Assembly: GCF_902652985.1 (NCBI RefSeq)
Contig: NC_047019.1
Span: 14,254,097-14,318,096, forward strand
From: Pecten maximus
Lineage: Eukaryota
DNA: 64,000 nucleotides
Direction of reading: 5' to 3'
In this document: positions 1 to 20,333 of the stretch, one piece after another
How positions within the stretch are numbered: the stretch's first letter is position 1
Layout of the letters: each line of letters opens with the position of its first letter
Notes under the pieces: generated by a model
Seen by the model: the letters and a program-made list of their open reading frames with translations, nothing else
The model's database searches: none
What the model was told of the DNA's origin: nothing
Position numbers and translations under genes: made by a program

Positions 1-415
1 CAATTGCCATGTAAGTACTATGACTGTATCTATACATCCATACAATTGTCATGTAAGTACTATGACTGTATCCATACATCCATACAATTGTCATGTAAGT
101 ACTATGACTGTATCCATACATCCACACAATTGTCATGTAAGTACTATGACTGTATCCATACATCCATACAATTGTCATGTAAGTACTATGACTGTATCCA
201 TACATCCATACAATTGTCATGTAAGTACTATGACTGTATCCATACATCCATACAATTGTCATGTAAGTACTATGACTGTATCCATACATCCACACAATTG
301 CCATGTAAGTACTATAACTGTATCCATACATCCATACAATTGTCATGTAAGTACTATGACTGTATCCATACATCCACACAATTGTCATGTAAGTACTATG
401 ACTGTATCCATACAT
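1..415. repeat. Tandem satellite with a 42-bp unit, about 10 copies. It is truncated by the window start
   Basis: The unit caattgtcatgtaagtactatgactgtatccatacatccata repeats head-to-tail. The ORF-track repeats MTVSIHPYNCHVST are 14 aa, matching 42 bp. Confidence 0.9.
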
Positions 416-3400: not shown

Positions 3401-6400
3401 ACTGACATTTTAAAATAAATCACTAAAATTAAACTGGTCAGCTAGCAAATAGATGAACCATCAAGGTTGCCTGTTGTGACTGACCCCTACTTATCTTTAT
3501 TGTCATTATCCAAAAAGACTAGTTACAATAATGTCAATTACCTTGGATTTTCCACATGTCTGATCATAATTACAACCAGCAATCATTCAATGATTTCTGT
3601 ACTTCAACTAAGGCTATAAAATATCTACCCGATGGGAGGACTCCAGGTTTAACAAACAGGGACTATCAATTGAGGTGATTTAATTAAAACAGTACCATAT
3701 CATAAGCCTTATTTTCATATTTCTATTTTCACAACAAATATACCTATTGGGAGTGAAATTTGCAAATCTACACCAGTATCTAGAACACTGGGTTTCTCCA
3801 TTGAAAAATCACAGGAAATGGACAATTTGACAAAGTTATCTCAGTTTACAGATAGCATTTTGGTTTTCAGTGTAAATTTAAATTTATCTTGGTTTACAGA
3901 TAACATCTTGGTTTTCAGTGTAAATTTAAACTTATCTCGGTTTACAGAGAGCATCTTGGTTTGCAGTGTAAATTTAAATAGTTCTAAAATTCAGGTGTAA
4001 TTTATCTGTGCGGTTGCCGTCATCACTCCAGCAAATCTACATATTTTCATTGACAGCACCATACATTGTTTTTACCTGTGAGTCTGGTGTCCTCGTGCTC
4101 AGGTTCCTGTGTCTTAGCCTCAGAACCAAGTGTTGTTGCGTGTTCCCAACACATTAACAGGGACTTGATATCAGGGATAGCCTGCAATGTATTACATATG
4201 GCTTTATTGAATATAAAACAAATCATGTCCTCATTTCCTTTAAGCGTAAAAAGACTTTTACCTGTCTTCAACGAAGATACAACCTTATATAACTGTTACA
4301 CAGGCGCTATACATGGCATTCTAGCTTTTACATTCTAGTAATGTTTATAACTTAAAAAGTCTAAAATATTGTGTCCAACAGATAATGTGGCCAGTTGGGT
4401 TCCATTTAAAGTTATATTTTACTGAAACATCATAATCTGGCCAGGAAGGTGTGTCCTGCTTCACATTCAGGTCATAACATTTCAGTGAGATGACACTTTA
4501 TAGCGATTCCTGTGTAGCTTCATCTTAAATTTAGAGACAATATTAGGACAGGTTTGTCCAATTCAATGTAAGCATAATGTGACTGAGTGGATAATCATGC
4601 TTATGTGTCCAGGTTATGACATTTCAGTATGATAAAACTATAAAATGGTTGTCCTTTCATCTTTGGACATTATCCTTATATCACATAAGCTGTAATAGGA
4701 ATGTTATAAAATTTCGTCTTGATCCAAATTTGACTGACCTTGACCCTATAAGACTGACCTTGATGACCTTCTCTCTGTAGTCTTGTTTAATGTCATCCCT
4801 TTCTGTGTCAGTGTACCAGTGACTTAGGTTGTCCTCCGTCACACATGCCAGGGCAGTCATCCCTCTTTTCAGCATCATATTGATGAAGTCTAGAACTGTG
4901 TCACGTGGTACAATATGTCTGTGCTGAAACAATAAATTTATATAGATGATATACACTGACCTTGACCTTGAGTAATGTGCACAAAGTTGATTGAGTAGTT
5001 TATTTGACCCTGACCTAGATAGTAATGTGTGAAACCCTGACATTGATAGTGATGTGTGTGACCCTGACCTTGATAGTGATGTGTGTGACCCTGACCTTGA
5101 TAGTGATGTGTGCAACCCTGACCTTGATAGTAATGTATGAATATGACATAGATAGTAATGTGTGCATGTGCTCTGACTAACCGTGACCTTGACAGTGGTG
5201 TATGCTTTCCTAAATGACCCTGACCTTGAGAGCCTGCAGTACAGTATATAACATCTCCTGTGGGGGTAAGGTGTCGACCATCAACATGTCCACAAACTTA
5301 TGGGCATTCACTCTGTCTCGTAACTTGAATGCTGCTGGTAGTTCCGACTGCTTTTCGAAAATCTGAAAAAGAGAAGCAGATAGTTTATCTTTTAATTCTA
5401 TCATGCGTCTTTTGCTATGAAAAAAGCCACACTATAACTGAACACTGAATATTTACTTTAATTTTGCCTCTATGAGTACAATTAACCATGTATCCGTCTT
5501 ATACAACCATCCTAACCTTGCAGAGAAATGCCATGGAAGCCCGCCACTTGGGTGAAGGTCGTGGTGACAAGGTGTTTAACATGGAGGGCAGGAAATGACA
5601 CAGCTGGTCTGGGCATGCCCGTAGAGTCTTTATAATCAGTTCCTGGATCTGTGGTGTCTCTGTTACTTTGGTTAGGGATGTCAGGAAACTTGTCAAAATG
5701 TGGTTTTGGTTTCTGAATAGAGCAGAGAAAAAAAGTTTTAAGAGATAATCGCAGTTGTGTCTCATGTCCTTGACCTTAACTTCCAATGATTTTTGACGAA
5801 GTAGCATCCCTGGTTTTATTATTTTAACATTAGTTTTTACATAATTTTATTGATACATTGTGTTCTCAAATTTCTCTTATCACTTTATTTGATCTGGAAT
5901 CATTTTAAACAGATAACAGTGATTCATTTCCCCTTGAAATGGACAATTACCACACTGTTCTTAATACTCAAGCCTGATCTACAAAATCTCACAAATACAC
6001 AATTCTGAGCAAACTTCAGTCCTAGATACTTATATGTGTGATATATTGGTAAATCATTTGAACAGCAGAAAATCTACAAATCAAAACAATTCCACGCCCA
6101 TGATAAAATAAAATTGTGATGACCATGGAGAGCATGTAAAGATGGATGGTCAGACCCTATGTCTACATCCCAGCCAACTTCCATTGCCCAGGGATAATAA
6201 GAATGTCCCCAACTTTGTTACAAAAATAAAAGACTTTATTAAGTTTTCTTACTGTCCAGAAGTGCCAAGCGCTTTGTCATAAAAGTTAATTCCAAATTTG
6301 TGTGAAGAACACAGCTCCACAAGGAGTTGGTGAGTGCTGTCTGCAACAATTTTTTGTTCCTCTGTCTTAGTTGCGTCGTCCACCTGTAAAATATTAGGGA

Positions 6401-9400
6401 GTTGTCAATGGCAATGACTTCTTTAAATCAATGTTCATCTGTTTGATTTGAGGCAGAACAATGATCAATGTCTTACAGAATGCCCAAGGATAACAGTGTA
6501 GATATATCCAGTTAATCCAGTTATCAAAGTAGGAATTTTTAAAATAAACTTCATCTGACAATAACATGGAAGATTTTATTTACCATATAACGATATTCTC
6601 ATGAGAAACCTGAATAGCATTAGAATGAAAAGTCTCAAATTATCTGTTTGTCTACAAGACAAGTGCATTTGATTTTAGGGATGTTTTCATTACAGTGCCA
6701 ATTGTATGCTGTCATTTTTATATATCACAAGAGTGATTTTACAATGGTTAAACTGTACAAAATCTATCACATAATCTGTCTGTTATTTTGTGAATACACC
6801 CATGTAATATGTTTACATAAGTTACTAGTGTAATATATAGTATCATATAAAATGCTTTTGTTTTAGTTTTGACTTTTGTCCTCCATATTTTAACTTTTAA
6901 CTTTGTCAAAACATCAGTTTTCTGATTAAGTGATTACAGTATCTTAATTTGTTTTCACTTCATATGAGATTTTATGAATCTTGTCTCGAAGTTTTATTTC
7001 TTCTTGCCCTCCGAGACTCTTTTCATCATATCTCATCTAAAAGTCCTCTATCTATGACATGGACATACTACATGGTAAAACAAGCCAGTTTAAATATGTG
7101 ATAAATATTGTTTTCCCAGAATCCATCTTTAAAAGTTAAGTTTTCCTTTCATAGATTTCTAAAGCTGTGACAATGTTAACTGACCTCAAGGTTGTCATCA
7201 GCTGGTCGGTTCTGCCAGGTGCTAGGACCTGTCCAGTGGTACAACTGACCCAACGCTCTCATGTTGAACTCTGTAAAAAGTCGAACCTTCAATGTCTTAG
7301 TGACCGCAGGGTTCTGGACAACCTGAAAGTGGGAATAGCAGCTCTGTGATGGAAATGAGCTTTTATCATAGAATACAAAGAACAGGTATAATTAGATACT
7401 GAATTTTTCATGAAACATCTTGTAATATCAAACATTGACAAGCGAATCAATAGCAGATCTAACTAATAGTTATGTCATAAAAATATTATGGAATTTATAA
7501 GATAAGTCTTTAATTCATTCAAACCTCTTTATTTCAAACTCTGATAACTCATAGACCCTGTTGAGCCCCACTCGATTTGCAATAAGAAGATTGCATTCCG
7601 TTACATGTAAATCGAGTAAACCGGGAGAATATATCCCAAAATAAACAAGTTTTTAAGTTTCCTCAAACACTATGACACAAACACATGCATGTATGTGTCA
7701 TATATCTTTCTCTAGTGAAACTCATCACTCGCGCACTTAAACATGGTCCCACCATCTTGGAAGATAAATCTTCCAGCTTCGAGACGGAAGAGGTAGATCT
7801 TCCAGAAGCAGAAGAGCTACAAATCGAGTGACCGAAAGATATATTCTAGAAGGAGAAGAGTGCAAATTGAGTGGGGCTCTGAACTTGAAGAGTATGTAAA
7901 ACATACTAAGTTACCTTGAAAAATCAGAATATCTCAAATTTTTTCCAAGACCCCCACTTATTGTGAGATAAGGAGGTTTGACTGTAGAAAGATGATCTTA
8001 CATCCTCTTCATCATATTTCATTATTGAATTAATTAATAAATTCCATACATCATTGTCAGAGGTGTAAGATTCATTCCTAAATATCAGAATTTAAGCAAA
8101 AACTCTCAAAAAAATTTCCACATAAAACAAGCAAAATTTTACTTTTTTCTTGTGTTACATAATGTACTGTTGTTATTGTGATACCGTCAATGTATTACAA
8201 CATCCAACAGTGTTATTACATTAGTATCGTAACATTTTGATGACATCACTCTATCACAGTGTAGTACAGGCCAGTTTTGTGATATAACCATTGTAGATGT
8301 TACAAGGTTTACCTTGTTGAGTAAGGTAGACAACACCATCTGTATGTTACCAACACTGTCGGCTTGTAGTCCAGGTATCAGGCTGCCAACGAAACCTTAA
8401 ATCAAAATATCATGAATTAAACTTCATTTTAATCACAATTTTAATTTCGTTGATTATAGATAATTCTTAATGGGCCATCAACAAGTAAAATAAAGGACAG
8501 TAATGAAATAAAAAGATACCATTTTACAGAAAAAATGGCATTAATCTATGATATGTAAGATACAGGCTAAAGGATCCACTCCCACATAAAGACCTTGACC
8601 ATTACTAATAATAGAGTACAAAGTCTCAACAAATATGGTAGAAAATAAAAAGGTTGACTTGTACAATCTTCTATCCACAGTATACCTCCCTAGCTTTGTT
8701 ACAGCTTGTGGAGTGTCCAATGAATATGTCCATAAGATATGAGTTATCTCTGCCCATAATAATTAGCGTCGTTTAGTAAGTGACCTTAACCTTAAGATCC
8801 TGAACTACGATCCAATCTGAGGTATTCTTATACCTGACCTTTCTATCAAATTTGATGAATATCTGTTTGATATGATGTTGATGACGTTCAGACATGACAC
8901 TGATATCAAATAGATTATCAGTGATGATATATGCCTTCCCTAGCAAACAGTACAAGCTATAATCACCTCGGATTTATCACAAAATATATTAATGCCTCAG
9001 TTGTCCTATTCTACCTCCCAAGTTGGGGCGGTGGTGGCCAAGTGATTAAGGTGTCCCGACACTTTATCACTAGCCCTCCACCTTTGGGTTGCGAGTTCAA
9101 AACCTATGTGGGGCAGTTGCCAAGTACAGGCTGTAGGTCGGTGGTTTTTCTCTGGGTTCCCCGGCTTTCCTCCACCTCCAAAACCTGGCAGGTCCTTAAA
9201 TGACCCTGGCTAGAACTTTAAACCAAAACAAACAAACAAACTACCTCCAAAAAAACTGACCTCTTTGTTCCAGCAGCTGTTTGATGACATCATCACTCCC
9301 AGTGATTAGGAACGACATCATGAAGTGAAGCAGACATGTACGTACATCCTTAGGGTCCTGAAACGTAAACGAGGGACACACAGTAATTACAGTGAAATGT

Positions 9401-12030
9401 TAAAAAAATTGTGAAGTTATCAAACTCGAGTGCTTCAATAAACAGTGTTCCCCTACTGGTATGTACTGAAGATTAATGCAGACCTAGGTATCCTATAATC
9501 CCACAATGTTAGGAGTTTCATCACAGCAAGATACCTTTGACAGGTAATATTCAGGCAGTATACTGTATTCAACATAATAAGTGCATTATGTGCGTACAAA
9601 AAACACAAAAGGGTTGCACTTTAACAAAACCATATACAGGGAAAAGTTTCCATGAGAAATATGACAGAAAAAACCCACTTCTTTTTCATTTACATATCTT
9701 TAAGGAGACAGAATATTAGGTTAAAGACTTAAGATTAAAGTAGCATATCAGTAAGTTAAGGAACTTTTCTATGTTCCAATAATAACGCACTCATCCTCTT
9801 TTCCTGAAAAAGGGTGGGGTATGCTTATAGGAGCAGATGTACCAACTAGGTTAAATACGGACTACCAATAGCAGATTGGGTGATAAAGATTCCCTCCCCT
9901 AATAGAGCTAGCTGTAGTGTTATTTAATGCTTCCAATCTTTGTTCAAATCTTCAGAAAGCACCAATAAAAACTTGAGGATCAGAAATAAAATGCTAAGAT
10001 TGGGACAGTCACGTAACAATTGAATTTCTTTAGTCATAGTTCAATCCCCATAATACCTTTTTGTCTCTGCGGTTCAATAATGGTGGCAGAACAGAGTTGT
10101 TGAAGTCAAACTGAGCGAGAACCATTCGGGCTGAGCGTTCTCCTAGCATCACCATAGCAGTCAGCAGCCTGAGGGTTACTTTGATGTGGCCGGACTTGTT
10201 GGTCATTAGCAGGGTGAAGTATATGGTGGCCATTTGAGAAGATAACAATCTTTGAACAATGTTCTGGCCCACCACAGAAAACTTCTCCATATCATCTGCA
10301 ATCCTGAGCAATATGGCCTCCAGGACTCCAAAGACAAGTGCCAACTGGTCCAAAGAGATACATTTAAATAACAGACTTTTGTTATGCATGTATTTCCTTA
10401 CAGCAACAATGGTTAATTTATTTATTTTCTTCATAGACAATTCTTTTTATCAGCCACAATATAATCATATATGTGTGATATGTTTATTTAATGAGATGTT
10501 TTTCTGATATTTGAAGAAACTTAGTGAACCTTGTTTGAACTACATGTATAGCTATTATAATGACTTAGTTACTCAAGAAAGCATAGAAAAAGTATAGATA
10601 CAAAAAGGTTAACATCCCAAATTCACCCAAACAAACAAAAATAAACTTTTTGTATACTACATGTATTATTATTATTACAGACTTGGGCGGAAATTACCTC
10701 CCCTGGTTTCCGTTTCCCTGCTTCAAGAACTTTGAACACCTCGCTGCATTCTGCTGATGATCGGCAGTATCCGGCAACAATATCATATCCATGCTCTTCA
10801 GGCCACTTTCTTGCACTCTCAGAAAATTTTTCAAAAGCTGAAAAAAAAAAACAAAAAAACATGAACACTAAATTCTTATACCTATACCAGTAACCTAGGT
10901 CTATATGAATTGAAAAGTGGACCTTTGGACAAGACATATAAACATGGAAATGAACATATTACATTTATCAAACGATCTTTTAAATGTCCAAGAAGAGCTT
11001 TTCCATTGCATAAATATATTTTACATTCCAGAGAGGCATCAAAAATATTTTGATAAATAACATACATATAGATTTGAAATTGCAAAAGGTATTCACTTTC
11101 AATTTATTGCATTATCAGTAGCAGGTGAGTGATGCTACCTCAAAGGCATGCACCTTACAAGGGCTACAGGATTTTGATTCTACTGTTTCAAAGTTTTCTC
11201 TACGAAATTCTGTAATGACATATATATATAGTGTAGTACGTATACCTTACACATGTATGTGCCATCTTAGCCAGAGTTTCCTCTGGACCTGACAACATGT
11301 CTGGTGTAGGCCTGACATATGCATGGTGTCAGGGCCAGAGGAAACTCGGGCTAGTGCCATCTGTGGGGGTGAATTCAACAGAGATGAAGATATATAATGC
11401 AACAGAAATCAATGTCGAACCGTAACGTCTCTGCCAGAGCATTTTGAAATCATTATTCTATGGTAATCCAAAAGTTTGTGATGTTTTATTGGTCTTTTAA
11501 AAAAATTATACGAGCAGAAATATTTCGTATATATAGGTATTTCTGACTATTTTTTGTAATATAAAACTAGACATGCCACTGTGATCTGACGTGGCTGACT
11601 TGCAGTACTGTTGTTTAATGTTACGAATGTTATTGTATTATTACTGATGCTGTCAGAGTTACAGTGCTTAACTAGCCTAATCAGGCATATATAACTGATT
11701 ACCAGCAGGCGTCGAAATTCTGATCGCATCAGGCCTTCGATCGGAATCTTGAAGCCCGAGATTTCAGTTGCCTTTTCTAATATTATATATTACAAGCATA
11801 ACGTTTGAACCTGAAAAGGTTGTTGATGGGTCCCTCAGAAGGTATTTGAACGTAATTTCTGTGAATTCTTCTGTCTTGCATTTCTTATTTGGTGAATCAG
11901 TGTTCTGTTTTTCTGCGTCAACTTTCTTCTTTTTCCTTTTTAACGGTAAATTCTTATCCTCCGTCATGTTTATCGAAACACATGTGCTCGTGTTGTTTAA
12001 ACCGGAAGTTCTCGCCTGTTTACCATTCAC
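1..12030 (-). CDS. URB1: URB1/NPA1-like gene (nucleolar pre-ribosomal-associated protein 1). This is the 5' portion (N-terminal roughly 900 aa), multi-exon, and the gene continues beyond the window start
   Basis: Minus-strand exon translations: MTEDKNLPLKRKKKKVDAEKQNTDSPNKKCKTEEFTEITFKYLLRDP (NLS-rich N-terminus); YDIVAGYCRSSAECSEVFKVLEAGKRKPGE; LALVFGVLEAILLRIADDMEKFSVVGQNIVQRL...LLTAMVMLGERSARMVLAQFDFNN; DVRTCLLHFMMSFLITGSDDVIKQLLEQ; VGNIQMVLSTLLNK; VVQNPAVTKTLKVRLFTEFNMRALGQLYHWTG; HKFGINFYDKALGTSGQ; LIIKTLRACPDQLCHFLPSMLNTLSPRPSPKW; IKNPYPYVDKVSDFVSEAITMETT. The order and motifs match my recollection of the URB1 N-terminal region (for example FEAILLRTASD, LSFLIAGDDSTIVQVLEV, ISFYDASLGTFG, NILKVCPDLL, LVANPYSYTDKASDFVQEA). 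Exons are colinear with GT/AG introns. Confidence 0.55.
1166..1439 (-). CDS. URB1: URB1-like exon (…EEKIEVIKLLAHVFTTFIKNPYPYVDKVSDFVSEAITMETTGGSNLDNISIGTHDSIIDG)
   Basis: Acceptor tctatcag| and donor GATG|gtaaat on the minus strand. Lies within minus ORF 1119..1439. Matches the URB1 ANPYSYTDKASDFVQEA region. Confidence 0.5.
2104..2211 (-). CDS. URB1: URB1-like exon (SRWSLPDAHITGDNDGGQFPLPDSTDYHYTGPYLP)
   Basis: Acceptor tattgtag| and donor CCCAG|gtaaag on the minus strand. The frame was chosen by phase continuity and differs from the listed 1987..2190 ORF frame. Confidence 0.3.
2677..3069 (-). CDS. URB1: URB1-like exon holding an acidic low-complexity region (…IKIQQTLCLYQDLVPSVLVDDPVIIYKLLAGVKK…SEKANTDNDQS…KLPWG)
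   Basis: Minus ORF 2600..3085. Acceptor ttttttgtag| and donor TGGG|gtaaag. Contains an internal run of imperfect 30-bp repeats at 2780-2880. Confidence 0.4.
3818..4000. repeat. Tandem repeat with a 40-bp unit, about 3.5 copies, in a URB1 intron
   Basis: ggtttacagatagcattttggttttcagtgtaaatttaaatttatctt is repeated. The + ORF 3818..4000 shows the same repeat (SVNLNLS). Confidence 0.8.
4076..4181 (-). CDS. URB1: URB1-like exon (AIPDIKSLLMCWEHATTLGSEAKTQEPEHEDTRLT)
   Basis: Minus ORF 4047..4271. Acceptor cattgcag| and donor CACAG|gtaaaa. Confidence 0.4.
4768..4923 (-). CDS. URB1: URB1-like exon (HRHIVPRDTVLDFINMMLKRGMTALACVTEDNLSHWYTDTERDDIKQDYREK)
   Basis: Minus ORF 4681..5115. Acceptor tgtttcag| and donor GAGAAG|gtcatc. 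The length of 156 nt gives 52 codons. Confidence 0.5.
4945..5190. repeat. Minisatellite with a unit of about 30 bp (tgaccctgaccttgatagtgatgtgtg), in a URB1 intron
   Basis: Direct repeats are visible. They give the SGSHTSLSRSGSHTSLS repeats at the end of minus ORF 4681..5115, which are not coding. Confidence 0.8.
5225..5362 (-). CDS. URB1: URB1-like exon (IFEKQSELPAAFKLRDRVNAHKFVDMLMVDTLPPQEMLYTVLQALK)
   Basis: Minus ORF 5210..5404. Acceptor ctttttcag| and donor CTCAAG|gtcagg. The length of 138 nt gives 46 codons. Confidence 0.5.
5517..5712 (-). CDS. URB1: URB1-like exon (NQNHILTSFLTSLTKVTETPQIQELIIKTLRACPDQLCHFLPSMLNTLSPRPSPKWRASMAFLCK)
   Basis: Minus ORF 5499..5807. Acceptor ctattcag| and donor TGCAAG|gttagg. 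Phase is consistent with the upstream exon (…GTSGQ|NQNH). Confidence 0.5.
6252..6382 (-). CDS. URB1: URB1-like exon (VDDATKTEEQKIVADSTHQLLVELCSSHKFGINFYDKALGTSG)
   Basis: Acceptor tttacag| and donor GGACA|gtaaga on the minus strand. Matches the URB1 HGISFYDASLGTFG region. Confidence 0.5.
7185..7322 (-). CDS. URB1: URB1-like exon (VVQNPAVTKTLKVRLFTEFNMRALGQLYHWTGPSTWQNRPADDNLE)
   Basis: Acceptor ctttcag| and donor CTTGAG|gtcagt on the minus strand. The length of 138 nt gives 46 codons. Confidence 0.5.
8313..8395 (-). CDS. URB1: URB1-like exon (FVGSLIPGLQADSVGNIQMVLSTLLNK)
   Basis: Acceptor ttaag| and donor CAACAAG|gtaaac on the minus strand. Confidence 0.45.
9015..9240 (+). mobile_element. 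tRNA-derived SINE, copy 1 of 4 (full length, with an A/C-rich tail), in a URB1 intron
   Basis: tRNA-Ser/Leu-like head GGTGGCCAAGTGATTAAGGTGTCCCGACAC…GGGTTGCGAGTTCAAAACC, then the conserved core GGTTTTTCTCTGGGTTCCCCGGCTTTCCTCCACCTCC and the tail aaccaaaacaaacaaacaaa. Near-identical copies lie at 46496-46628, 51752-51990 and 63038-63270. ORF 8931..9203 is a translation of this SINE. Confidence 0.75.
9261..9357 (-). CDS. URB1: URB1-like exon (DPKDVRTCLLHFMMSFLITGSDDVIKQLLEQR)
   Basis: Acceptor acgtttcag| and donor AAAGAG|gtcagt on the minus strand. Matches the URB1 DVRQAYVQFALSFLIAGDDSTIVQVLEV region. Confidence 0.5.
10057..10344 (-). CDS. URB1: URB1-like exon (LALVFGVLEAILLRIADDMEKFSVVGQNIVQRLLSSQMATIYFTLLMTNKSGHIKVTLRLLTAMVMLGERSARMVLAQFDFNNSVLPPLLNRRDKK)
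   Basis: Minus ORF 10030..10440. Acceptor ggaccag| and donor AAAAG|gtatta. The length of 288 nt gives 96 codons. Confidence 0.6.
10698..10837 (-). CDS. URB1: URB1-like exon 2 (FEKFSESARKWPEEHGYDIVAGYCRSSAECSEVFKVLEAGKRKPGE)
   Basis: Minus ORF 10623..10937. Acceptor (t)n-cag| and donor GGGGAG|gtaatt. Phase 1 in, consistent with exon 1. Confidence 0.55.
11230..11350. mobile_element. Hairpin-forming SINE-tail fragment, a MITE-like inverted repeat
   Basis: ccagagtttcctctggacctgacaacatgtctggtg faces cat(g)gtgtcagggccagaggaaactcgggct. It is related to the tail of the SINE-like element at 30195-30480. Confidence 0.5.
11811..11967 (-). CDS. URB1: URB1-like exon 1 (MTEDKNLPLKRKKKKVDAEKQNTDSPNKKCKTEEFTEITFKYLLRDPSTTFS). 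An alternative upstream ATG lies at 12030
   Basis: Minus ORF 11764..12030. Donor TTTTCAG|gttcaa. Basic NLS-like N-terminus. Confidence 0.5.
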
Positions 12031-12233: not shown

Positions 12234-12246
12234 ATGTCGATGGACA
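12234..12246 (+). CDS. CHMP1: CHMP1 exon 1 (MSMD-, phase 1)
   Basis: aaaaATGTCGATGGACA|gtatcc. The frame is completed by exon 2 to give K. Confidence 0.6.
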
Positions 12247-15200
12247 GTATCCTTTAAAATATTGGTAAAAACATGCGGGTTATAGAATATAGAGATGGGT
12301 AATTATGTTGATACTGAAGTAGGTTTAGAGATTTTCTTGAAAATGTAAACATTGGAAGTCACGATTTCCTGATTCAATCAGACTCAAGGACTTCTCCTAT
12401 GAAACTTTGTTATATTCTATGATTGTATTGTCTATTTAATTTGTCTACTGAAGGACAAGTCATGATAATTATATAACATTCATTTTAAAGAAATGTTGTC
12501 AAAAAGACTACTGATGATGAAAATCAGCAACAGTTTGTAGTAAAAGTTGACAGAATTATGAAATGTAAAAGTTTAAAGTAATTAAGAAAAAAGATCTGTA
12601 TTTTGAAATTATTTATTGGTCCTGAGTTTGGTCAACTAAATATTTCCTCTCTATTTACCTTAATATGACTAAAGTGTTGTAGTGTTGCCTTGTAACTTTG
12701 CAATATATCAATATAATATGTGCATGTGGCAGGTTTTCATGGTGATATGGTCGCCTTCTAGCTTTGCGCTAGGGGGAATTTCCCTTTAGAGCGGCGGACC
12801 AGTAATCTGAAAGTTGATGGCCATGGTTTGATCCTCGTTGGAGGCACACTACTCTCTTTCCTGTTACAAATATATACATTGTATTTTATATGGTTTATAT
12901 ATAGACTTATATCCTATACAAAGATATTCTGATGGAAAATTCCCTGTGAATGCTGATGTTATGTATGTTATGTATTTTTGTAGTTTTCTTGAAATATTTA
13001 TTTAATAGATTATGTATTGCATGTTCTGTCTGGTATACCTTAACAGTATATAGAGCATCTCTTTAATCTCAAATTCGCTGCAAAGGACTTGGAGCGCAAT
13101 GCAAAACGAAGTGAAAAGTCAGAAAAAGAAGAAAAAACTAAATTAAAAAAGGTAACCAGTAGTTAAAATTGTTTATAGAATGCTGATAAAGGTCAGGTGA
13201 TGTAGACAATGTACTGGTAAGTACCGTAGATTTTTCCCATGTCAATATTTGAAGAAGAAAAAGGGCACTATACACAAATATTTATGGTAAGTATTATGGT
13301 TGTAACCATGTAACTATAAACATACACCTGTAGATCAGTATGGTAACACTATGGTCTATGGCCACCATATATAGATAAGTATGGTAACACCATATGACCA
13401 CCATGTAGATAAATATGGTAACACCATGGCCACCATGTAGATAAGTATGGTAACACCATGGTCATCATATTAGGTGGATATGGTAACACCACATGGTCGT
13501 CATATTAGGTAGATATGGTAACACCACATGGTCGTCATATTAGGTAGATATGGTAACACCACATGGTCGTCATATTAGGTAGATATGGTAACACCACATG
13601 GTCGTCATATTAGGTAGATATGGTAACACCATATATAGCCGCCATGTAGGTAAGTATGGTAACCATTAAATAAGTATGGTAACACCATGGTCTGCATGTA
13701 GATAAGTATGTATGGTTTTACCATGAACACCATGTAAGTAATGAAAATTTAGTTATCTAAAACATTTCAGTGTATACAGCGTAACGATAGTAAAAGAACT
13801 TACCTGTATCTGTATATACCTTTTTTAGGTCACCTGAGACAAAGTCTCAAGTGACCTATTCTAATTGCCTTTTGTCCGTCGTCGTGCGTCGTCCGTCGTG
13901 CGTCCGTAAACAATTTACATTTTCGACTTCTTCTCCAAAGCCCCTAAACCAAATTCAATGAAATTTGGCAGGAAGCTTTTATGGCTAAAGGTCAACCAAA
14001 ATTGTGAATTATATGGTCCCCACCCCCAAGGGGCCTGAGGGGCGGGGCTAAAAAGGGTCAAATTTACTAAAACTTCAAAAATCTTCTTCTCTACTCTCAG
14101 ATATGGTGGAATCAAACACTCTTCATAGATGGAAGGGTCTTAAGGTACTTTACCAAAATTGTGAATTTCATGACCCAGGGGTCTCACGTTTGCCCCTGGG
14201 GAGGGGGTAAACTTTACTATAGTTTATATAGGGAAATCACATTTTTGACTATAATTTGTTGGATTTCTATTGGAATTCATTCTAACTTGGTTAACATTAT
14301 CAGCATGGGAAAACAGATTGATGGTATACACATGTTGGCCTTGACTGACCCCCAGGGGCTGATGGGCGGGGCTAAAAAGGGTCAAATTTACTAAAACTTC
14401 AAAGATCTTCTTCTCTACTCTCAGATATGGTGGAATCAAACACTCTTCATAGATGGAAGAGTCTTAAGGTGCTTTACCAAAATTGTGAATTTCCTGACCC
14501 TGGGGTCTCACATTTGCCCCTGGGGAGGGGGTAAACTTTGCTATAGTTTATATAGGGAAATCACATATTTGACTATTGTTTGTTTGATTTCTATTGGAAT
14601 TCATTCTAACTTGGTTAACATTATCAGCTTGTGATTGCAGTTTGATGGTATACACATGTTGGCACTGACTGACCCCCAGGGGCTGATGGGTGGGGCTAAA
14701 AAGGGTCAAATTGACTAAAACTTCAAAAATCTTCTTTTCAAAACCCAATTAAGATAGAATCAAATACTCTTCATAGGTGGAAGGGTCTTATAGTGCTTTA
14801 CTAATGTTATGAATTTCATGACCCTGGGGTCACAAGTTTGCCCCTGGTGAGGGGGTAAACTTTACTATAGTTTATATAGGGAAATCACATTTTTGACAAT
14901 TATTTGTTTGATTTCTATTGGAATTCATTCTAACTTTGTTAACATTATCAGCATTGGATGACAGCTTAATGGTATATACCTGTTGGCCCTGACTGACCCC
15001 TAGGGACTGATGGGTGGGCTCAAAAGGGTCAATTAGATTAACTGAAATACTTCAAATCTCAGGTGACCGTTAAGGCCCATGGGCCTCTTGTTACACTTGA
15101 CATGCACTCCACTATACATACATTAGTGTATGTCTTCATGGAATGATCTGCATTGTAATCAAATCTATGTGATATATACATATACACTGTACATGAAATA

Positions 15201-18200
15201 AATATATATAGTACATCCAGTGGTAAACATGATTCAGATGTCGTATTTACGATGTACATTTGACTGGTCATTAGTCTATTGAAGGTGATATTTATATAGT
15301 GTAGCCGCTAAAACATTAATATTGTCTATCTATTTCTAACAAACTGTCCAAATATGAAGCTCTGTTTACACAATATATAACTTATATATGTTACAATATA
15401 CTATACATTTAACAACTATTTACACATGTATCACTTTTATATCAGTTACATTATACTGTGAAAGGAGCGAGTTGGTGTGGCTTGTATTTAGTGAGGTCTT
15501 TGTCACTCAACTGATGGAGCAGCTTCGATTGCTCTTGAGGTAGTCGTGGATTATTACACCAGAGATCCTGGTTCGATTCCTGTCAGGGCATTCAGCAGGA
15601 ATGTGTTTTCCCTGTTACCTCACTGACAATCCTATTAATTTCCCGACTATTTACCCTTTTTAAACAAGTTACATTATATACTTTACATATACCAACACAT
15701 ATAAAGAACAGTATAAGTGACAGGCCTTAACACAGTACAGGGCAACTCTTCAATTTGAAATATAGTGCTAGGTCACTACTGCGTTTTGCAAACAAATGTG
15801 ATAAGGAAGAAAGGACTGAAAAGAGAAAATTGAAAAAGGTGAGTTTATATTGTAACGTGTAGCTCGTTTCCTCACCTGGTGTTGTAATAAAATAATGGTC
15901 TGATATACTATACTCAGCTTTTGTAACCCATGTATTAAATATGCATACAGCATTCCTCAAAAAAATGTCATCCCTGACTTATGTTGATTGGAGATTCTTA
16001 CCCCAGTCTTCAGAATGTTTAACACACATTCATTAATGCAATACTAGTAGTACCAAAGACAGTTCACTGTGTCACTTTCACATCAGTTAGGTCAAGGTCA
16101 CTATTTGAAGTCATATTCCAAATCTGCGCAAACAACAGATAAGTTTCATTATAGATACTTTTCAGTATGGTGTGTCACCAACTCACCATGCAATTTGTAC
16201 TAATGATGCAATTTGTAATAAAAATTTAAGAGTTATTTTTTGTGTGTAAGTCTGCAGAAACTCAGGTCCAAGGTCAAGGTCATAATACAAACCTAGTGTG
16301 TAGCTGAATAACACCATGTGATATATTCAAAATAGCATTCCAGATGAAAATGTTTTATCACTTCTTATCAAACAGAAGCAAGCTCATCTGACTAGAATCC
16401 TATATTTTGTAGAACCAGATTCTGACCATTATGTATGCTTGTTACAGGCAATCCAGAAAGGTAATCTAGAGGGAGCCAGAATACATGCAGAAAACTCAAT
16501 CCGACAGAAGAACCAGGCCCTCAACTACAGACGCATGAGTGCAAGGATTGATGGTGTAGCAGCCCGGGTACAAACAGCTGTGACAATGAAACAGGTATGC
16601 ACATTACGTACCTGTTATATAATGTAGCATTTGTATCTTAGGTAATAAATGGAGGAGATCAAGTAGATTTGTTCAATATCAGAAATTTTGTTTAATAGTA
16701 AATGAATTTTCTGACACTTTTAAATAAATTGAAGGAATCTTATACCAGTTCAAAAATAATTATTTAATGTATGAATTGTTGTTTTTAGCCCACCATCATC
16801 AGATGGTGGGCTATTCAAATCGCCCTGCGTCCGTGGTCCGTCGTCCGTCCGTCCCTCCGTCCGTCCGTAAACAATTCTTGTTATCGCTAATCCTCAGAAA
16901 GTATTGCATTTTGAGACCAATCGGAAAACAACATGGCCGACAGGCAGCCATCTTGGATTTTGACAATTGAAGTTTGTTATCGCTATTTCTGAGAAAGTAC
17001 TGAAGAGATCTTTCTTAAATTTCATATGTAGGTTCCCCTTGGTGCCTAGTTATGCATATTGCGTTTTGAGACCAATTGGAAAACAACATGGCCGACAGGC
17101 AGCCATCTTGGATTTTGACAATTGAAGTTTGTTATCGCTTTTTCTGAGAATGTGCTTAAGGGATCTTTCTCAAATATAATATGAAGGTTCCCCTTGGTGC
17201 CTAGTTATGCATATTGCGTTTTGAGAATAATCGGATAACAACATGGCCGACAGGCAGCCATCTTGGATTTTGACAATTGAAGTTTGTTATCGCTATTTCT
17301 GAGAAAGTACTAAAGGGATCTTTCTCAAATTTCATATGTAGGTTCCCCTTGGTGCCTAGTTATGCATATTGCGATTTGAGACCAATTGGAAAACAACATG
17401 GCCGACAGGCAGCCATCTTGGGTTTTGACAATTGAAGTTTGTTATCGCTATTTCTGAGAATGTACTGAAGGGATCTTTCTCAAATTTCATATGTAGGTTC
17501 CCCTTGGTGCTTAGTTATGCATATTGCGATTTGAGACCAATCAGAAAACAACATGGCCGACAGGCAGCCATCTTGGATTTTGACAATTGAAGTTTGTTAT
17601 CTCTATTTCTGAGAAAGTACTGAATGGATCTTTCTGAAATTTCATATGTACGTTTCCCTTGGTGCCTTGTTATGCATATTGCATTTTGAGACCAATCAGA
17701 AAACAACATGGCCGACAGGCAGCCATCTTGGATTTTGACAATTGAAGTTTGTTATCACTATTTCTGAGAAAGTACTGAATGGATCTTTCTGAAATTTCAT
17801 ATGTAAGTTTCCCTCGGTGCCTAGTTATGCATATTGCGTTTTGAGACCAATCTGAGAACAACATGGCCAACAGGCAGCCATCTTGGATTTTGACAATTGG
17901 AAGTTTGTTATCGCTATTTCTGAGAAAGTACTGAAGGGATCTTTCTCAAATTTCATATGGAGGTTCCCCTTGGTGCCTCTTTATGCTTATTGCATTTTGA
18001 GATCAATTGGAAAACAATATGGCCGACAGACCGCCATCTTGGATTTTGACAATTGAAGTTTGTTATCTCTATTTCTCAAAGTACTGAATGGATCTTGCTC
18101 CATAGTAGGTTCCCCCTGGTCCCTTGTATTGCATTTTTGGACCAGTCTGTCCTGAAAACAACCTGGCAAACAAACAGCCATTATCGTTAAATCTCAAATT

Positions 18201-20333
18201 TCTTATATAGCTAGGATTCCCTTGTTTGAAAAGTACTGGAGGGATGTCTCAATTTGCACAGATTAGTAAAATGAAGGGAAAAGTAGAGAAAAAATCAATC
18301 TGACATGGAACTTATGAAGATCATTCAATGGTGGGCGCCAAGATCCCTCTGGGATCTCTTGTTTTTCTGTTTAAATATGAAATCTAAGCGTTGTTCATCA
18401 TTTTAGGTTGCATTAAATCATTAAATTGAAGTCTATTAACATTACAAGCCTGTAATACAGATGTTTTGGGTTTATAGGTCACTGGATCCATGGCCGGTGT
18501 GGTGAAGTCTATGGAATCAGCAATGAAGAGTATGAATCTTGAGAAGGTAGGTTTATTTTTGTTCAAATGAAATTTTACAAGAATATTGTTGGCACTTGTA
18601 AAAAAAATTATAGATATACTTAACACTAAATATTTTCGCTACAGTCCATCCAGGATAGACGTCATGATCTCTGATTGGTCAATATTTAGACATTGAATTT
18701 TATGAAAATTTTTATGCATTTATATGGTGTATTTTGGGACTGTAAATAGTTGATTGGATGAGAAAGCAAATTCCTAGATATGTATCTGGCTATAAGCCCA
18801 TGTCTGCCTATAACAAACTACCAAATTTGATTAATGTTTATTGCATTTCAGTTAAAAAGCTTGTAGAAAATCAATGACATTTCATTGTCGAGCAATAAGC
18901 CCATTCTCTACCTCGAGTCCAAATTGATTTGTTAGTCACCTGGGCCTATCGCAGGATGACGTACAGTATTACGTTACAATTCAGTAGTGATGGGAATGAC
19001 ACCAGCTCAATGTGTGATGGTTCTAGTGTATTACCTGAAGTTATTTTGTCTTTAAAATGAAAATAAGATGTAGACATTACTTCTTTACAGATCTCACAGT
19101 TGATGGACAGGTTCGAACAACAGTTTGAGAATCTAGATGTGCAATCACAGGTGATGGAAGACACCATGAATGCATCGTCCACCCTTAACACACCTCAGAC
19201 GCAAGTGGAAGGACTGATGCAGGAGGTTGCTGACGAGGCTGGGTATGTACATCATCTTAGACTTGTTATATTTCCTAAAATAAACGGTAATCATGACGTT
19301 AAACATTTCTGTTAGGTTACTGGTCTACCTTTTATTTTGAGTTTTGATTGCATTATATATCAGTTCAGATGTGAAGTTGAGAGAAAGTCAAAAGACCGGT
19401 TAAACATACAGATTTAAGTGTGATTTTAACAAAGAATTAATATACATTTGTATTGAGCCATACATATTTAACATTAAAGACCATAGCTGTTGAAAGGTCA
19501 TTAAACAATACTATGCCAAACCTTAGGGCTATTCCAGCAAAATGCATACAGGTACCCTACGTGAGGACTCGAGAAAAAAACAAATTCTATACATGGTGGG
19601 TGTTGAAGAAAAGTGTGAGACAGTGGGAAGCAATCTTTAAATCTTGTTCTCATTAAATAAAATATGTGATTTGTGTTACAGTTTGGAATTAAACATGGAC
19701 CTTCCGTCAGCACAGTCATCCTTACCCTCTGGAGTAGCGTCATCAAATGCAAGTAGTGAGCAGGTAAGCTTGTGTGTAAATGGGCAGCATTATTACTGGA
19801 CAAGAACAGAAATTGTGGAGAAGAACTTGTATATATTTTGTTAAAATTTGCCTCTCATCCATTTTTCTGTTTTGACAATAAATTTCTTTAGATCAAATAA
19901 ACAAGTGGGTGTGTAAGAAATGGGGAAGTATCTATCATCTATTACTAGTTTTTAAAAGATTGGTCAGTTCTTGTTCTTATCATCTGTCTATTTTCTAAAT
20001 ATTGATTTATAAAATAACCTGGTTTAAAAAATACATTTTGGGGGCAAGAAACTTTGTTTGTGTTATTTTGGGGGATAGTTTATATCACTGATGCATTATT
20101 GAAAAATTGGTTTAGCAAATTTTCTTCATGAAAGTCTGATATAACATGTACTATTTCATAGCTTTTAAGTTTTTGTATCAGTATTTCTACCATACAATAC
20201 CACAACACAAAGAACTTTGCAGAAAAAATTCCTATTTCAATTTATTTGATGTAGTCTTTATCGATATAATAATAAATATGTTTCTTTTCTTTAGGATGAA
20301 CTTACACAGCGACTTGCAAAGTTACGGAATTGA
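12234..20333 (+). CDS. CHMP1: CHMP1 (charged multivesicular body protein 1, ESCRT-III). Complete gene with 7 coding exons plus a duplicated alternative exon 2
   Basis: Spliced translation MSMDKHLFNLKFAAKDLERNAKRSEKSEKEEKTKLKK|AIQKGNLEGARIHAENSIRQKNQALNYRRMSARIDGVAARVQTAVTMKQ|VTGSMAGVVKSMESAMKSMNLEK|ISQLMDRFEQQFENLDVQSQVMEDTMNASSTLNTPQTQVEGLMQEVADEAG|LELNMDLPSAQSSLPSGVASSNASSEQ|DELTQRLAKLRN*. This aligns along the CHMP1A/B proteins as I recall them. All junctions are GT/AG with consistent phases. Confidence 0.85.
13054..13151 (+). CDS. CHMP1: CHMP1 exon 2a (KHLFNLKFAAKDLERNAKRSEKSEKEEKTKLKK)
   Basis: Acceptor tatatag| and donor AAAAAG|gtaacc. It is 98 nt. Confidence 0.75.
13330..13700. repeat. 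Minisatellite with a unit of about 40 bp (atatggtaacaccacatggtcgtcatattaggtag), about 9 copies, in CHMP1 intron 2
   Basis: Direct tandem repeats are visible. Confidence 0.85.
13790..15060 (+). repeat. Satellite-carrying element. A 5' leader (hairpin ggtcacctgagacaaagtctcaagtgacc, then tattctaat, a (GTCC/CGTC)n microsatellite, then gtaaacaat) is followed by about 3.5 tandem copies of a roughly 316-bp unit
   Basis: Unit period measured between the gggcggggctaaaaagggtcaaatttactaaaacttcaa landmarks at 14049 and 14364. The same leader and unit family recur at 63296-64000. Minus ORFs 13915.., 14224.. and 14548.. are repeat translations. Confidence 0.8.
15480..15625 (+). mobile_element. tRNA-like SINE fragment of a different family (…GGTTCGATTCCTGTCAGGGCATTCAGCAGG…)
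   Basis: tRNA T-arm-like GGTTCGATTCC motif. It lies just upstream of CHMP1 exon 2b. Confidence 0.4.
15741..15838 (+). CDS. CHMP1: CHMP1 duplicated alternative exon 2b (QLFNLKYSARSLLRFANKCDKEERTEKRKLKK). Same length (98 nt) and phases as exon 2a
   Basis: Acceptor gtacag| and donor AAAAAG|gtgagt. It is a paralogue of exon 2a (LFNLKF/Y…KCDKEE…KLKK). Including both would shift the frame, which implies a mutually exclusive pair. Confidence 0.5.
16448..16594 (+). CDS. CHMP1: CHMP1 exon 3 (AIQKGNLEGARIHAENSIRQKNQALNYRRMSARIDGVAARVQTAVTMKQ)
   Basis: Acceptor ttgttacag| and donor AAACAG|gtatgc. It is 147 nt. Lies within ORF 16439..16627. Confidence 0.85.
16780..18360 (+). repeat. Satellite-carrying element of the pearl/Helentron-associated type. 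Leader (palindrome gcccaccatcatcagatggtgggc, then tattcaaatcgcc, then (CCGT)n, then gtaaacaat) followed by about 9 tandem copies of a roughly 155-bp unit, then a 3' tail
   Basis: Period measured between recurring acatggccgacaggcagccatcttggattttgacaattgaag at 16931, 17086 and 17241. A related leader plus a partial unit lies at 58950-60060. Minus ORFs 17515.., 17670.. and 17987.. are repeat translations. Confidence 0.8.
18478..18546 (+). CDS. CHMP1: CHMP1 exon 4 (VTGSMAGVVKSMESAMKSMNLEK)
   Basis: Acceptor tttatag| and donor GAGAAG|gtaggt. It is 69 nt. Confidence 0.85.
19091..19242 (+). CDS. CHMP1: CHMP1 exon 5 (ISQLMDRFEQQFENLDVQSQVMEDTMNASSTLNTPQTQVEGLMQEVADEAG)
   Basis: Acceptor ctttacag| and donor GCTGG|gtatgt. 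Lies within ORF 19100..19315. Confidence 0.85.
19682..19763 (+). CDS. CHMP1: CHMP1 exon 6 (LELNMDLPSAQSSLPSGVASSNASSEQ)
   Basis: Acceptor tgttacag| and donor GAGCAG|gtaagc. Lies within ORF 19644..19844. Confidence 0.8.
20295..20333 (+). CDS. CHMP1: CHMP1 terminal exon (DELTQRLAKLRN*)
   Basis: Acceptor ttctttag| and stop TGA at 20331-20333. Matches the CHMP1 C-terminal MIM motif (…DELSQRLARLR…). Confidence 0.8.
   Translation, partial: DELTQRLAKLRN

Follow-up and report, generated by a model that had tools for sequence, protein, structure and literature searches.

A candidate pair of mutually exclusive exons in scallop CHMP1, separated by a U2/U12 hybrid intron

The CHMP1B-like gene of the scallop Pecten maximus contains two copies of its second exon, 2a and 2b, and the splice signals around them lead us to regard it as likely that the copies form a mutually exclusive exon (MXE) pair, both coding, whose exclusivity would be imposed by a U2/U12 hybrid intron lying between them. 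Sequence features typical of such a pair are present: the exons are neighbouring and homologous, belong to the same length class, have the same phases and fit the flanking exons. Orthologues of 2b with an intact open reading frame and intact splice signals were found in Argopecten irradians, Ylistrum balloti and Mizuhopecten yessoensis, and thus, together with Pecten, in four scallop genera.

Gene structure and reading frame

The gene lies in the window (the whole stretch of 64,000 nucleotides that was analysed) and its product is exactly the sequence of XP_033740038.1. Homology over the full length and 97% identity to a CHMP1B2-like protein of Argopecten place it in CHMP1/Did2 (ESCRT-III, Snf7 family, PF03357); PF03357/PF03398 domains are precomputed on proteins matching scallop CHMP1, and human CHMP1B structures match the scallop protein (E = 4.5e-79) in a gap-free alignment. 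The coding exons are the following.

12234..12246, + strand: coding part of exon 1, ATGTCGATGGACA, encoding M S M D and the first base of codon 5, with a phase 1 exit (pattern search)
13054..13151, + strand: exon 2a, the canonical helix-α1 exon, 98 nt, running from AGCATCTC (after tatag) to AAAAAG (before gtaacc)
15741..15838, + strand: exon 2b, a divergent paralogous helix-α1 exon, 98 nt, running from GGCAACTC (after tacag) to AAAAAG (before gtgagt)
16448..16594, + strand: exon 3, with a phase 0 start and an acceptor common to 2a and 2b
18478..18546, + strand: exon 4
19091..19242, + strand: exon 5
19682..19763, + strand: exon 6
20295..20333, + strand: coding part of exon 7, with the stop codon

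The coding part of exon 1 is the same in Argopecten, Ylistrum and Mizuhopecten, and agrees with the N-terminus MSMD of P0123/P0001. Two paralogous 98-nt exons had been proposed for this gene in an initial annotation of the DNA, and both were found exactly where it had placed them, with the AG acceptors and GT donors that it described (tatag/gtaacc for 2a, tacag/gtgagt for 2b) and with the same phases for both copies, as exon 1 exits in phase 1 and exon 3 is entered in phase 0. Its translations agree with the recomputed ones, namely (K)HLFNLKFAAKDLERNAKRSEKSEKEEKTKLKK for 2a and (R)QLFNLKYSARSLLRFANKCDKEERTEKRKLKK for 2b. The two copies are 55% identical in protein and 62-66% identical in DNA, and are matched to each other within the window by tblastn (E = 2e-7). 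Exon 1 joined to either copy and to exons 3-7 gives a 600-nt open reading frame of 199 codons. Inclusion of both copies causes the frameshift that had been predicted, with a stop at codon 43, inside 2b, and omission of both brings a stop at codon 10; an mRNA that took up both copies through leaky splicing, or neither, would in this way terminate early and presumably be degraded by nonsense-mediated decay.

The canonical copy is 2a, which is present in every annotated mollusc CHMP1B, while 2b is the divergent copy. The initial annotation had hinted at 2b as the more vertebrate-like of the two, and this stands in part: in the alignment 2b carries KCDKEE, the motif of human CHMP1B, but it is derived at the otherwise near-invariant LKFAAK core.

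Minor-spliceosome signals around the pair

Judged by its splice-site and branch-site sequences, intron 1 is a U12-type (minor-spliceosome) intron of the GT-AG subtype, a feature overlooked in the initial annotation. The signals are located as follows.

12247..12255, + strand: U12-type 5' splice site of intron 1, GTATCCTTT, preceded by CA, not AG
13011..13037, + strand: stretch of conserved intron sequence ahead of the 2a branch site (alignment; blastn blocks from 13011)
13038..13044, + strand: U12-type branch site of the 2a acceptor, CCTTAAC, branch A 11 nt before the exon
15725..15731, + strand: U12-type branch site of the 2b acceptor, CCTTAAC, branch A 11 nt before the exon
15839..15846, + strand: strong U2-type donor of 2b, GTGAGTTT, identical in all four scallops

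U12-type introns have the consensus RUAUCCUU at the 5' splice site and UCCUURAY at the branch site, G being disfavoured at -1 (PMC10853781). The 5' splice site of intron 1 conforms to RTATCCTT, and G is missing at -1, exon 1 ending in GACA (GATA in Aplysia and Solemya). The same 9-mer, GTATCCTTT, is found in seven molluscs (four scallops, Potamilus, Saccostrea and Aplysia), and Solemya has GTATCTTTT, with one mismatch. At the other end of the intron, CCTTRAC precedes both acceptors in all four scallops and matches TCCTTRAY at 7/8 to 8/8 positions; the copy before 2b reads CCTTAAC in Ylistrum and Mizuhopecten too, and TCCTTGAC in Argopecten. The branch A lies 11 nt from the exon, except in Ylistrum 2a (9 nt), the optimum for U12-type introns being 11-13 nt (PMC3584512). 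The donor of 2a is, like that of 2b, U2-type (GTAACC in Pecten, GTAAA/GTAAC in the other scallops). The exon 3 acceptor (ttgttacag) is also U2-type and is devoid of the CCTTRAC motif, polypyrimidine content separating U2- and U12-type acceptors only loosely in the AT-rich scallop genome. The intron between 2a and 2b combines sites of two spliceosome types, that is, the U2-type donor of 2a and the U12 branch site of 2b. As no further U12-type donor was found between 2a and 2b in any of the four scallops, 2b has no alternative first exon.

This configuration suggests how the choice could be made. The U12-type donor of exon 1 would pair only with a U12-type acceptor, which 2a and 2b alone offer, and for the U2-type donor of either copy the sole compatible partner would be the U2-type acceptor of exon 3. 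The 2a-2b intron, which begins with a U2-type site and ends with a U12-type one, is a hybrid and should be a poor substrate for both spliceosomes. With one U12 donor facing two U12 acceptors, and U2 donors following, a single exon, 2a or 2b, is expected per mRNA, 2a as the default form and 2b probably as a minor or tissue-restricted one.

The incompatibility between the two systems is not absolute: in WDFY1 mutants, splicing can connect U2-type 5' sites with the 3' AG of a U12-type intron (PMC1874599), and a few U12-type 3' sites serve both spliceosomes (PMC10853781). Exclusivity might then come mainly from two acceptors competing for one donor, backed by frameshift and nonsense-mediated decay, with the U12 signals as inherited baggage of the duplication. 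Although the shared length of 98 nt, the stop at codon 43 upon joint inclusion and the ability of the U2 spliceosome to use U12-type AG 3' sites on occasion would all accommodate such competition, we consider it an improbable main cause: the U12 branch site of 2b keeps its 11-nt spacing across the four genera, and in Argopecten it was recreated or retained as TCCTTGAC despite a local rearrangement, a conservation that indicates selection on U12-type recognition of 2b. Moreover, the U12 donor of exon 1 cannot reach exon 3, so that some U12 acceptor is required.

The conserved intronic block before the 2a branch site contains TATTGCATG at 13015-13023 and with it UGCAUG, a motif of the Rbfox type, at a distance of 35 nt from the 2a acceptor. 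The motif stands at -35/-33 from 2a in all four scallops; Saccostrea, Potamilus and Solemya, which have one exon 2, lack it ahead of that exon. We infer that this UGCAUG element is a candidate regulator of the choice between 2a and 2b, and it could act as the switch in the hybrid-intron mechanism.

Conservation of 2b and selection across scallops

Among the scallops, DNA identity amounts to 87-92% for 2b, 89-93% for 2a and 87-90% for exon 3, while the introns around 2b are unalignable among the four and range from 157 to 2589 nt in length. Exon 2a has dN = 0 across the four scallops; dN/dS of 2b is 0.04-0.16, with few substitutions behind the statistics of so short an exon (32 codons). In the Pecten-Mizuhopecten comparison, 2b differs by 10 synonymous and 5 non-synonymous changes (binomial P = 7e-5 against neutrality), and the variable sites of 2b are distributed 4/3/14 over the codon positions, in the frame set by the exon 1-2b junction. 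The Argopecten 2b is lengthened to 110 nt by a 12-nt insertion at the 5' end, which leaves the frame intact, and has its own branch site 11 nt before the AG. These substitution patterns show purifying selection on the coding sequence of both copies, and the comparison among scallops strongly supports reading 2b as a functional coding exon and not as a relic.

Annotated proteins contain only 2a. The RefSeq (Gnomon) models of the four scallops each give a single protein, with 2a only and with no isoform label. A 2b-like segment occurs in none of 5.8 billion protein cluster representatives, where the best matches (<=74% identity) are all 2a-type, and a comparison with 15 billion sequences gave no exact match to 2b. 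Scanning metagenomes for 2b or the 2b-3 junction likewise returned nothing. The transcript-derived 2a form of scallops is also missing from the protein collection, and the absence of 2b there is thus weakly informative. We flag 2b as an exon missed by annotation in four scallop genomes.

Two other readings of 2b have to be weighed against these data. The first, that 2b is an unused relic (a dead pseudo-exon) of an old duplication, open by chance, would explain why it appears in no annotated or assembled product. It is, in our estimation, very improbable, since the surrounding introns are saturated and unalignable in the four scallops and yet 2b has stayed 87-92% identical, its synonymous changes far outnumber the non-synonymous ones, and the open frame, the branch site, the AG and the identical GTGAGTTT donor are all kept in 4/4 scallops. 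According to the second, 2b is a regulatory 'poison' exon that is occasionally added after 2a, lowers CHMP1 output and never contributes to a full-length protein. Poison exons are often highly conserved in DNA, translation ends within 2b on joint inclusion, and a 2b protein isoform is annotated in 0/4 genomes. The codon-position bias (4/3/14), however, fits the frame of 2b placed directly after exon 1 and would be meaningless in the other frame, in which 2b is read after 2a; the peptide is still CHMP1-like, with a dN/dS of 0.04-0.16, the insertion in Argopecten has a length divisible by three, and addition after 2a would set a U2-type donor against a U12-type acceptor. We therefore hold a poison-exon role to be very unlikely, and favour 2b as a coding alternative to 2a.

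The initial annotation had suggested looking for the duplication in other bivalves. It is shared by the four scallop genera and is absent from an oyster, a unionid and a protobranch, as well as from Aplysia, all four of which keep the U12 intron. A tandem duplication of exon 2 that took along the U12-type branch site and the 3' splice site would have taken place in the lineage leading to Pectinidae.

Predicted protein consequence and relation to known systems

Exon 2 encodes residues 5-37, the first half of helix α1, on the side of the CHMP1B polymer that touches the membrane. The membrane-contacting residues of helix α1 in human CHMP1B are F9, F13, K16 and R20 (PMC9935397); they correspond to scallop positions 8, 12, 15 and 19, all of them in exon 2. 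In 2b compared to 2a, the second membrane-inserting Phe (the human F13 position) is replaced by Tyr, Lys15 by Arg, Asp16 by Ser, Glu18 by Leu and Asn20 by Phe (His in Argopecten), with the result that two acidic residues are lost, Leu and Phe are gained, and the net charge rises from +6 to +8. Tyr is found at the F13 position in the 2b of all four scallops, Phe in every other homologue inspected. The two mRNAs would give CHMP1 forms that differ at residues 5-37 only, and the 2b form should accordingly be altered in its lipid or membrane engagement, the rest of the protein being untouched. Tentatively, scallops might possess a minor-spliceosome-gated switch that swaps the membrane-inserting face of CHMP1, the choice being made by tissue-specific factors (e.g. 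an Rbfox-type factor on UGCAUG) or by minor-spliceosome activity.

The scallop protein aligns end to end with human CHMP1B (PDB 3JC1, 6TZ4/6TZ5, 6E8G, 8V2Q), and its exon 2 specifies the stretch of helix α1 in which the membrane-contacting residues lie. Vertebrates diversified CHMP1 as two genes, CHMP1A and CHMP1B, whereas the single scallop gene would vary the N-terminal half of helix α1 only; 2b is not CHMP1A-like: KCDKEE is retained in it, and Tyr occupies the F13 position. The variable segment belongs to the very helix with which the CHMP1B-IST1 polymer contacts and scores membranes (PMC9935397). Exons 2a and 2b would represent matched helix-α1 variants furnished by evolution and suited to reconstitution assays, and the switch, if true, would amount to a natural experiment in the tuning of ESCRT-III membrane remodelling by helix α1 chemistry.

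Generic tandem MXE clusters (of the Letunic-Copley-Bork type; human and Drosophila catalogues) likewise consist of homologous exons that lie side by side, agree in length and phase and code for one and the same structural segment, with an exon length not divisible by three (PMC5740500). Unlike the mechanism proposed for scallops, most of them rely on frameshift and nonsense-mediated decay, steric hindrance or competing RNA structures; U2/U12 incompatibility is found in only 5/629 human MXE clusters, and the main text of that study names no CHMP gene (PMC5740500).

Closer relatives are the vertebrate JNK and TMEM87 genes, where U2/U12 hybrid introns drive mutually exclusive exons (PMC1874599; PMC8329584). 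Exons 6a/6b of JNK (MAPK8/9/10) and 11/11a of TMEM87A/B are likewise tandem-duplicated pairs with a mixed-spliceosome intron between them that cannot be removed, and in JNK one of the two serves as the default exon, use of the other being limited to certain tissues (PMC1874599; PMC3584512; PMC8329584). The JNK arrangement itself (PMC1874599) does not apply to scallop CHMP1, which is its mirror image: the polarity is reversed, the U12 branch site and 3' splice site being duplicated, the hybrid consists of a U2 5' splice site and a U12 3' splice site, and the U12 intron is the upstream one, with a single donor that has two U12 acceptors to choose from. JNK and TMEM87 also differ in gene family (ESCRT-III here) and lineage, and the scallop case is predicted from sequence. 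Alternative splicing involving U12-type introns is described as almost absent, with only few mutually exclusive cases known, JNK, TMEM87, prospero and dUrp (PMC3584512; PMC8329584). To these U12-linked MXEs scallop CHMP1 would add an invertebrate case of opposite polarity, in which light the duplication of an exon beside a U12 intron would give a mutually exclusive pair with the U12 intron on either side.

Gene model and the two copies of exon 2

The window carries a seven-exon CHMP1B-like gene on the plus strand, in which two copies of exon 2 lie between exons 1 and 3.

Exons of the Pecten maximus CHMP1B-like gene
12234-12246, plus strand, exon 1 coding sequence
13054-13151, plus strand, exon 2a (98 nt)
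15741-15838, plus strand, exon 2b (98 nt)
16448-16594, plus strand, exon 3
18478-18546, plus strand, exon 4
19091-19242, plus strand, exon 5
19682-19763, plus strand, exon 6
20295-20333, plus strand, exon 7

The 199-residue product read through exon 2a is identical in sequence to the Pecten maximus protein XP_033740038.1 (P0123), and the Argopecten irradians protein shows 97% identity to it. Both 98-nt exons lie exactly where the initial annotation had placed them, each with an AG acceptor, a GT donor, entry in phase 1 and exit in phase 0, and their proposed paralogy is borne out by 55% protein and 62% DNA identity. Either exon alone yields an intact 600-nt open reading frame; joint inclusion causes the frameshift that had been foreseen, so that translation would end within 2b, at codon 43, and skipping of both leads to a stop at codon 10. 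Exon 2a encodes KHLFNLKFAAKDLERNAKRSEKSEKEEKTKLKK, a segment that recurs with hardly a change in all the annotated CHMP1B proteins inspected from molluscs, annelids and brachiopods. Of the two copies, 2b is the one that has diverged: LKYSAR replaces the LKFAAK core, which is otherwise nearly invariant. Alignment confirms that 2b retains the ancestral KCDKEE motif also found in human CHMP1B.

Scallops, Solemya and Saccostrea all have a large Npa1/NopRA1-domain (URB1-like) gene head-to-head with CHMP1, corresponding to the window upstream of about position 11800; this divergent gene pair looks like a long-conserved arrangement.

URB1-like gene at the compared loci
1-9800, minus strand, Argopecten irradians (L001), Ylistrum balloti (L002) and Mizuhopecten yessoensis (L003)
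1-2772, minus strand, Solemya (L005)
125-5737, minus strand, Saccostrea (L007)

Similarity in the scallop promoter region begins at position 11807 (blastn). The annotated Mizuhopecten protein (P0122, XP_021359415.1 / OWF47466.1; L003 10001-10139) has a 42-residue N-terminal extension unique among the species, probably because annotation picked an upstream ATG within the 5' UTR.

Conservation of exon 2b and search for its products

Comparison with the orthologous loci of Argopecten irradians, Ylistrum balloti and Mizuhopecten yessoensis placed exon 2b, with an open frame, between 2a and exon 3 in all three. The flanking introns are unalignable among scallops and vary in length (580-2589 nt between 2a and 2b, 157-657 nt between 2b and exon 3), and blastn comparison of the Pecten region with the other scallops gave four main blocks together with a few short weak intronic matches.

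Main blastn blocks shared among scallops
Block 1, promoter and exon 1
Block 2, exon 2a and about 43 nt of upstream intron
Block 3, exon 2b plus 16 nt on its upstream and 8-18 nt on its downstream side
Block 4, exon 3

Cross-species DNA identity of exon 2b (87-92%, blastn) is on par with that of exon 3 (87-90%). Among scallops, pairwise dN/dS of 2b is 0.04-0.16 and dN of 2a is 0; variable sites of 2b fall 4/3/14 on codon positions 1/2/3 in the frame set by the exon 1-2b junction, and Pecten and Mizuhopecten 2b differ by 10 synonymous and 5 non-synonymous changes (P = 7e-5 against neutrality). Argopecten 2b (L001 14005-14114) measures 110 nt instead of 98 owing to a 12-nt insertion, TGAAACTTAACC, at its 5' end, which keeps the frame (MSMD-MKLNQ-HLFNLKY...). 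Judged from these comparisons, exon 2b is maintained by selection.

Two other readings would make 2b a dead duplicate or a poison exon. For each of the four scallops, RefSeq models a single protein, the 2a form; a profile built from the N-termini of the four 2b forms matched nothing but CHMP1 fragments of the 2a type, none above 74% identity, and look-up of five predicted 2b isoforms gave no exact match. Scanning metagenomes for the 2b core and for the join of 2b to exon 3 likewise gave no hit, weak negatives given that the collections apparently contain no scallop transcriptomes. The main argument against both readings is comparative, namely the protein-coding constraint on 2b in the exon 1-2b frame; conservation, selection and an in-frame insertion form a pattern not expected of a dead copy. 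At best, exon 2b would represent a minor or restricted isoform missed by annotation pipelines, and at worst it would have a use other than that proposed here.

Within the Pecten 2a-2b intron, positions 14703-14747 and 15059-15091 match Argopecten sequence at about 20800-21560 of L001, several kb past the gene. These segments are probably dispersed-repeat fragments, which may account for the size of this intron (2.6 kb in Pecten vs 0.58 kb in Mizuhopecten).

Splice signals, proposed exon choice and origin of the pair

Exon 1 ends in CA immediately before the donor GTATCCTTT in all four scallops; absence of G at position -1 is the exon-end feature that tells true U12-type (minor-spliceosome) GT-AG introns from U2-type look-alikes (PMC10853781). 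The motif CCTTAAC precedes both 2a (13038-13044) and 2b (15725-15731), placing the branch adenosine 11 nt ahead of each exon, so that both sites fit the U12 consensus UCCUURAY (PMC10853781) and the optimum distance of 11-13 nt (PMC3584512). Motif and spacing are kept for both exons in all four scallop genera. The Argopecten insertion is itself branch-site-like and lies downstream of a relocated acceptor; a separate TCCTTGAC branch site serves this acceptor, 11 nt ahead of its AG. The 2a donor (GTAACC/GTAAAA) is of the ordinary U2 type, as is the 2b donor GTGAGTTT, whose strength the initial annotation had rightly pointed out and which is identical in the four scallops; the exon 3 acceptor and all later splice sites are likewise U2-type. 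Pyrimidine-tract content was indecisive as a U2/U12 discriminator in this AT-rich genome.

With this arrangement, the U12 donor of exon 1 would find compatible partners only in 2a or 2b, and the U2 donor of either copy only in exon 3. The 2a-2b intron, being U2-type at its 5' end and U12-type at its 3' end, is a hybrid that neither spliceosome is expected to remove. This wiring therefore predicts exactly one of the two exons per mRNA, a mechanism that the initial annotation had missed, and the frameshift on joint inclusion would serve as a backstop. The incompatibility is not absolute: in mutants, U2 5' sites can be joined to the 3' AG of a U12 intron (PMC1874599), and a small number of U12 3' sites serve both spliceosomes (PMC10853781). 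Some leakage cleared by nonsense-mediated decay is therefore plausible. Steric hindrance was ruled out as the basis of exclusivity by the length of the 2a-2b intron (at least 580 nt in every scallop), and an alternative first exon for 2b by the lack of any U12-type donor motif between 2a and 2b in the four species.

Upstream of the 2a branch site, an intronic block (13011-13037) containing TATTGCATG is conserved in all four scallops. It includes UGCAUG (TGCATG at 13018-13023 in the window, and at L001 12261, L002 10880 and L003 13602), 33-35 nt before the 2a acceptor, and is absent from three bivalves with a single exon 2. UGCAUG is the binding motif of Rbfox, whose binding upstream of an exon is usually repressive. 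In tissues that express Rbfox, its binding here might turn the U12 donor towards 2b, and the invariant strong 2b donor could aid definition of 2b across the exon.

Potamilus (Unionida, L006), Saccostrea (oyster, L007) and Aplysia californica (gastropod, L009) share this U12 donor and have a close branch site ahead of their single exon 2, and Solemya (Protobranchia, L005) has both signals with one mismatch in each motif. By these signals, the U12-type intron 1 of CHMP1 is old. The intron between exons 2 and 3 contains no second copy in any of these four, and an older origin of 2b was rejected on this ground. Since 2b occurs in four pectinid genera and is absent from the oyster, the duplication took place after the scallop-oyster split and before the four genera diverged; it cannot be dated because 2a-2b dS is saturated. 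Scallop 2a and 2b orthologues cluster by exon rather than by species, and there is therefore no sign of gene conversion. CHMP1B is intronless in Pinctada imbricata (L004 3001-3603) and Branchiostoma floridae (L008 1001-1600), where the locus translates directly to protein, suggesting retrocopies or complete intron loss; these copies are therefore uninformative on the origin of 2b. In Aplysia, no intron separates the counterparts of scallop exons 3 and 4 (L009 5854-6069). A candidate exon 2 pair in the crinoid Anneissia japonica was discarded, as isoforms X2 (P0111) and X1 (P0249) differ only in their first few residues (MEE... vs MSSQMEK...), reflecting an alternative exon 1.

Predicted protein change and related exon pairs

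Over its N-terminal part, the scallop protein can be aligned to human CHMP1B with no gaps, so that human residue numbers exceed the scallop ones by one. In human CHMP1B, F9, F13, K16 and R20 contact the membrane, and membrane binding depends critically on K16 and R20 (PMC9935397); the scallop equivalents of all four lie inside exon 2.

Residues encoded by exons 2a and 2b at selected positions
Scallop 8, human F9: 2a F, 2b F
Scallop 12, human F13: 2a F, 2b Y in all four scallops
Scallop 15, human K16: 2a K, 2b R
Scallop 16, human E17: 2a D, 2b S
Scallop 18, human S19: 2a E, 2b L
Scallop 19, human R20: 2a R, 2b R
Scallop 20, human S21: 2a N, 2b F (H in Argopecten)

Differences between the copies are concentrated on and beside the membrane-facing helix stripe, and the net charge of the encoded segment rises from +6 (2a) to +8 (2b). 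On the most economical reading, the 2b isoform would show altered membrane or lipid engagement.

A literature search, with the listed matches judged by title, returned no description of mutually exclusive exons in CHMP1, and one for a CHMP1A 'minor intron' gave no match; by these searches, such exon variation in this ESCRT-III gene appears previously undescribed. The description that fits exons 2a and 2b best is a tandem duplicate confined to one lineage and probably mutually exclusive, with exclusivity that would stem from U2/U12 incompatibility, an interpretation supported by comparative and splice-signal evidence. The same hybrid-intron principle operates in vertebrate JNK exons 6a/6b and TMEM87 exons 11/11a (PMC1874599; PMC8329584). 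The duplicated signal there is the U12 donor, whereas scallop CHMP1 is the mirror image, and the pair would join this known but rare class of exons with reversed polarity, in an ESCRT-III gene.
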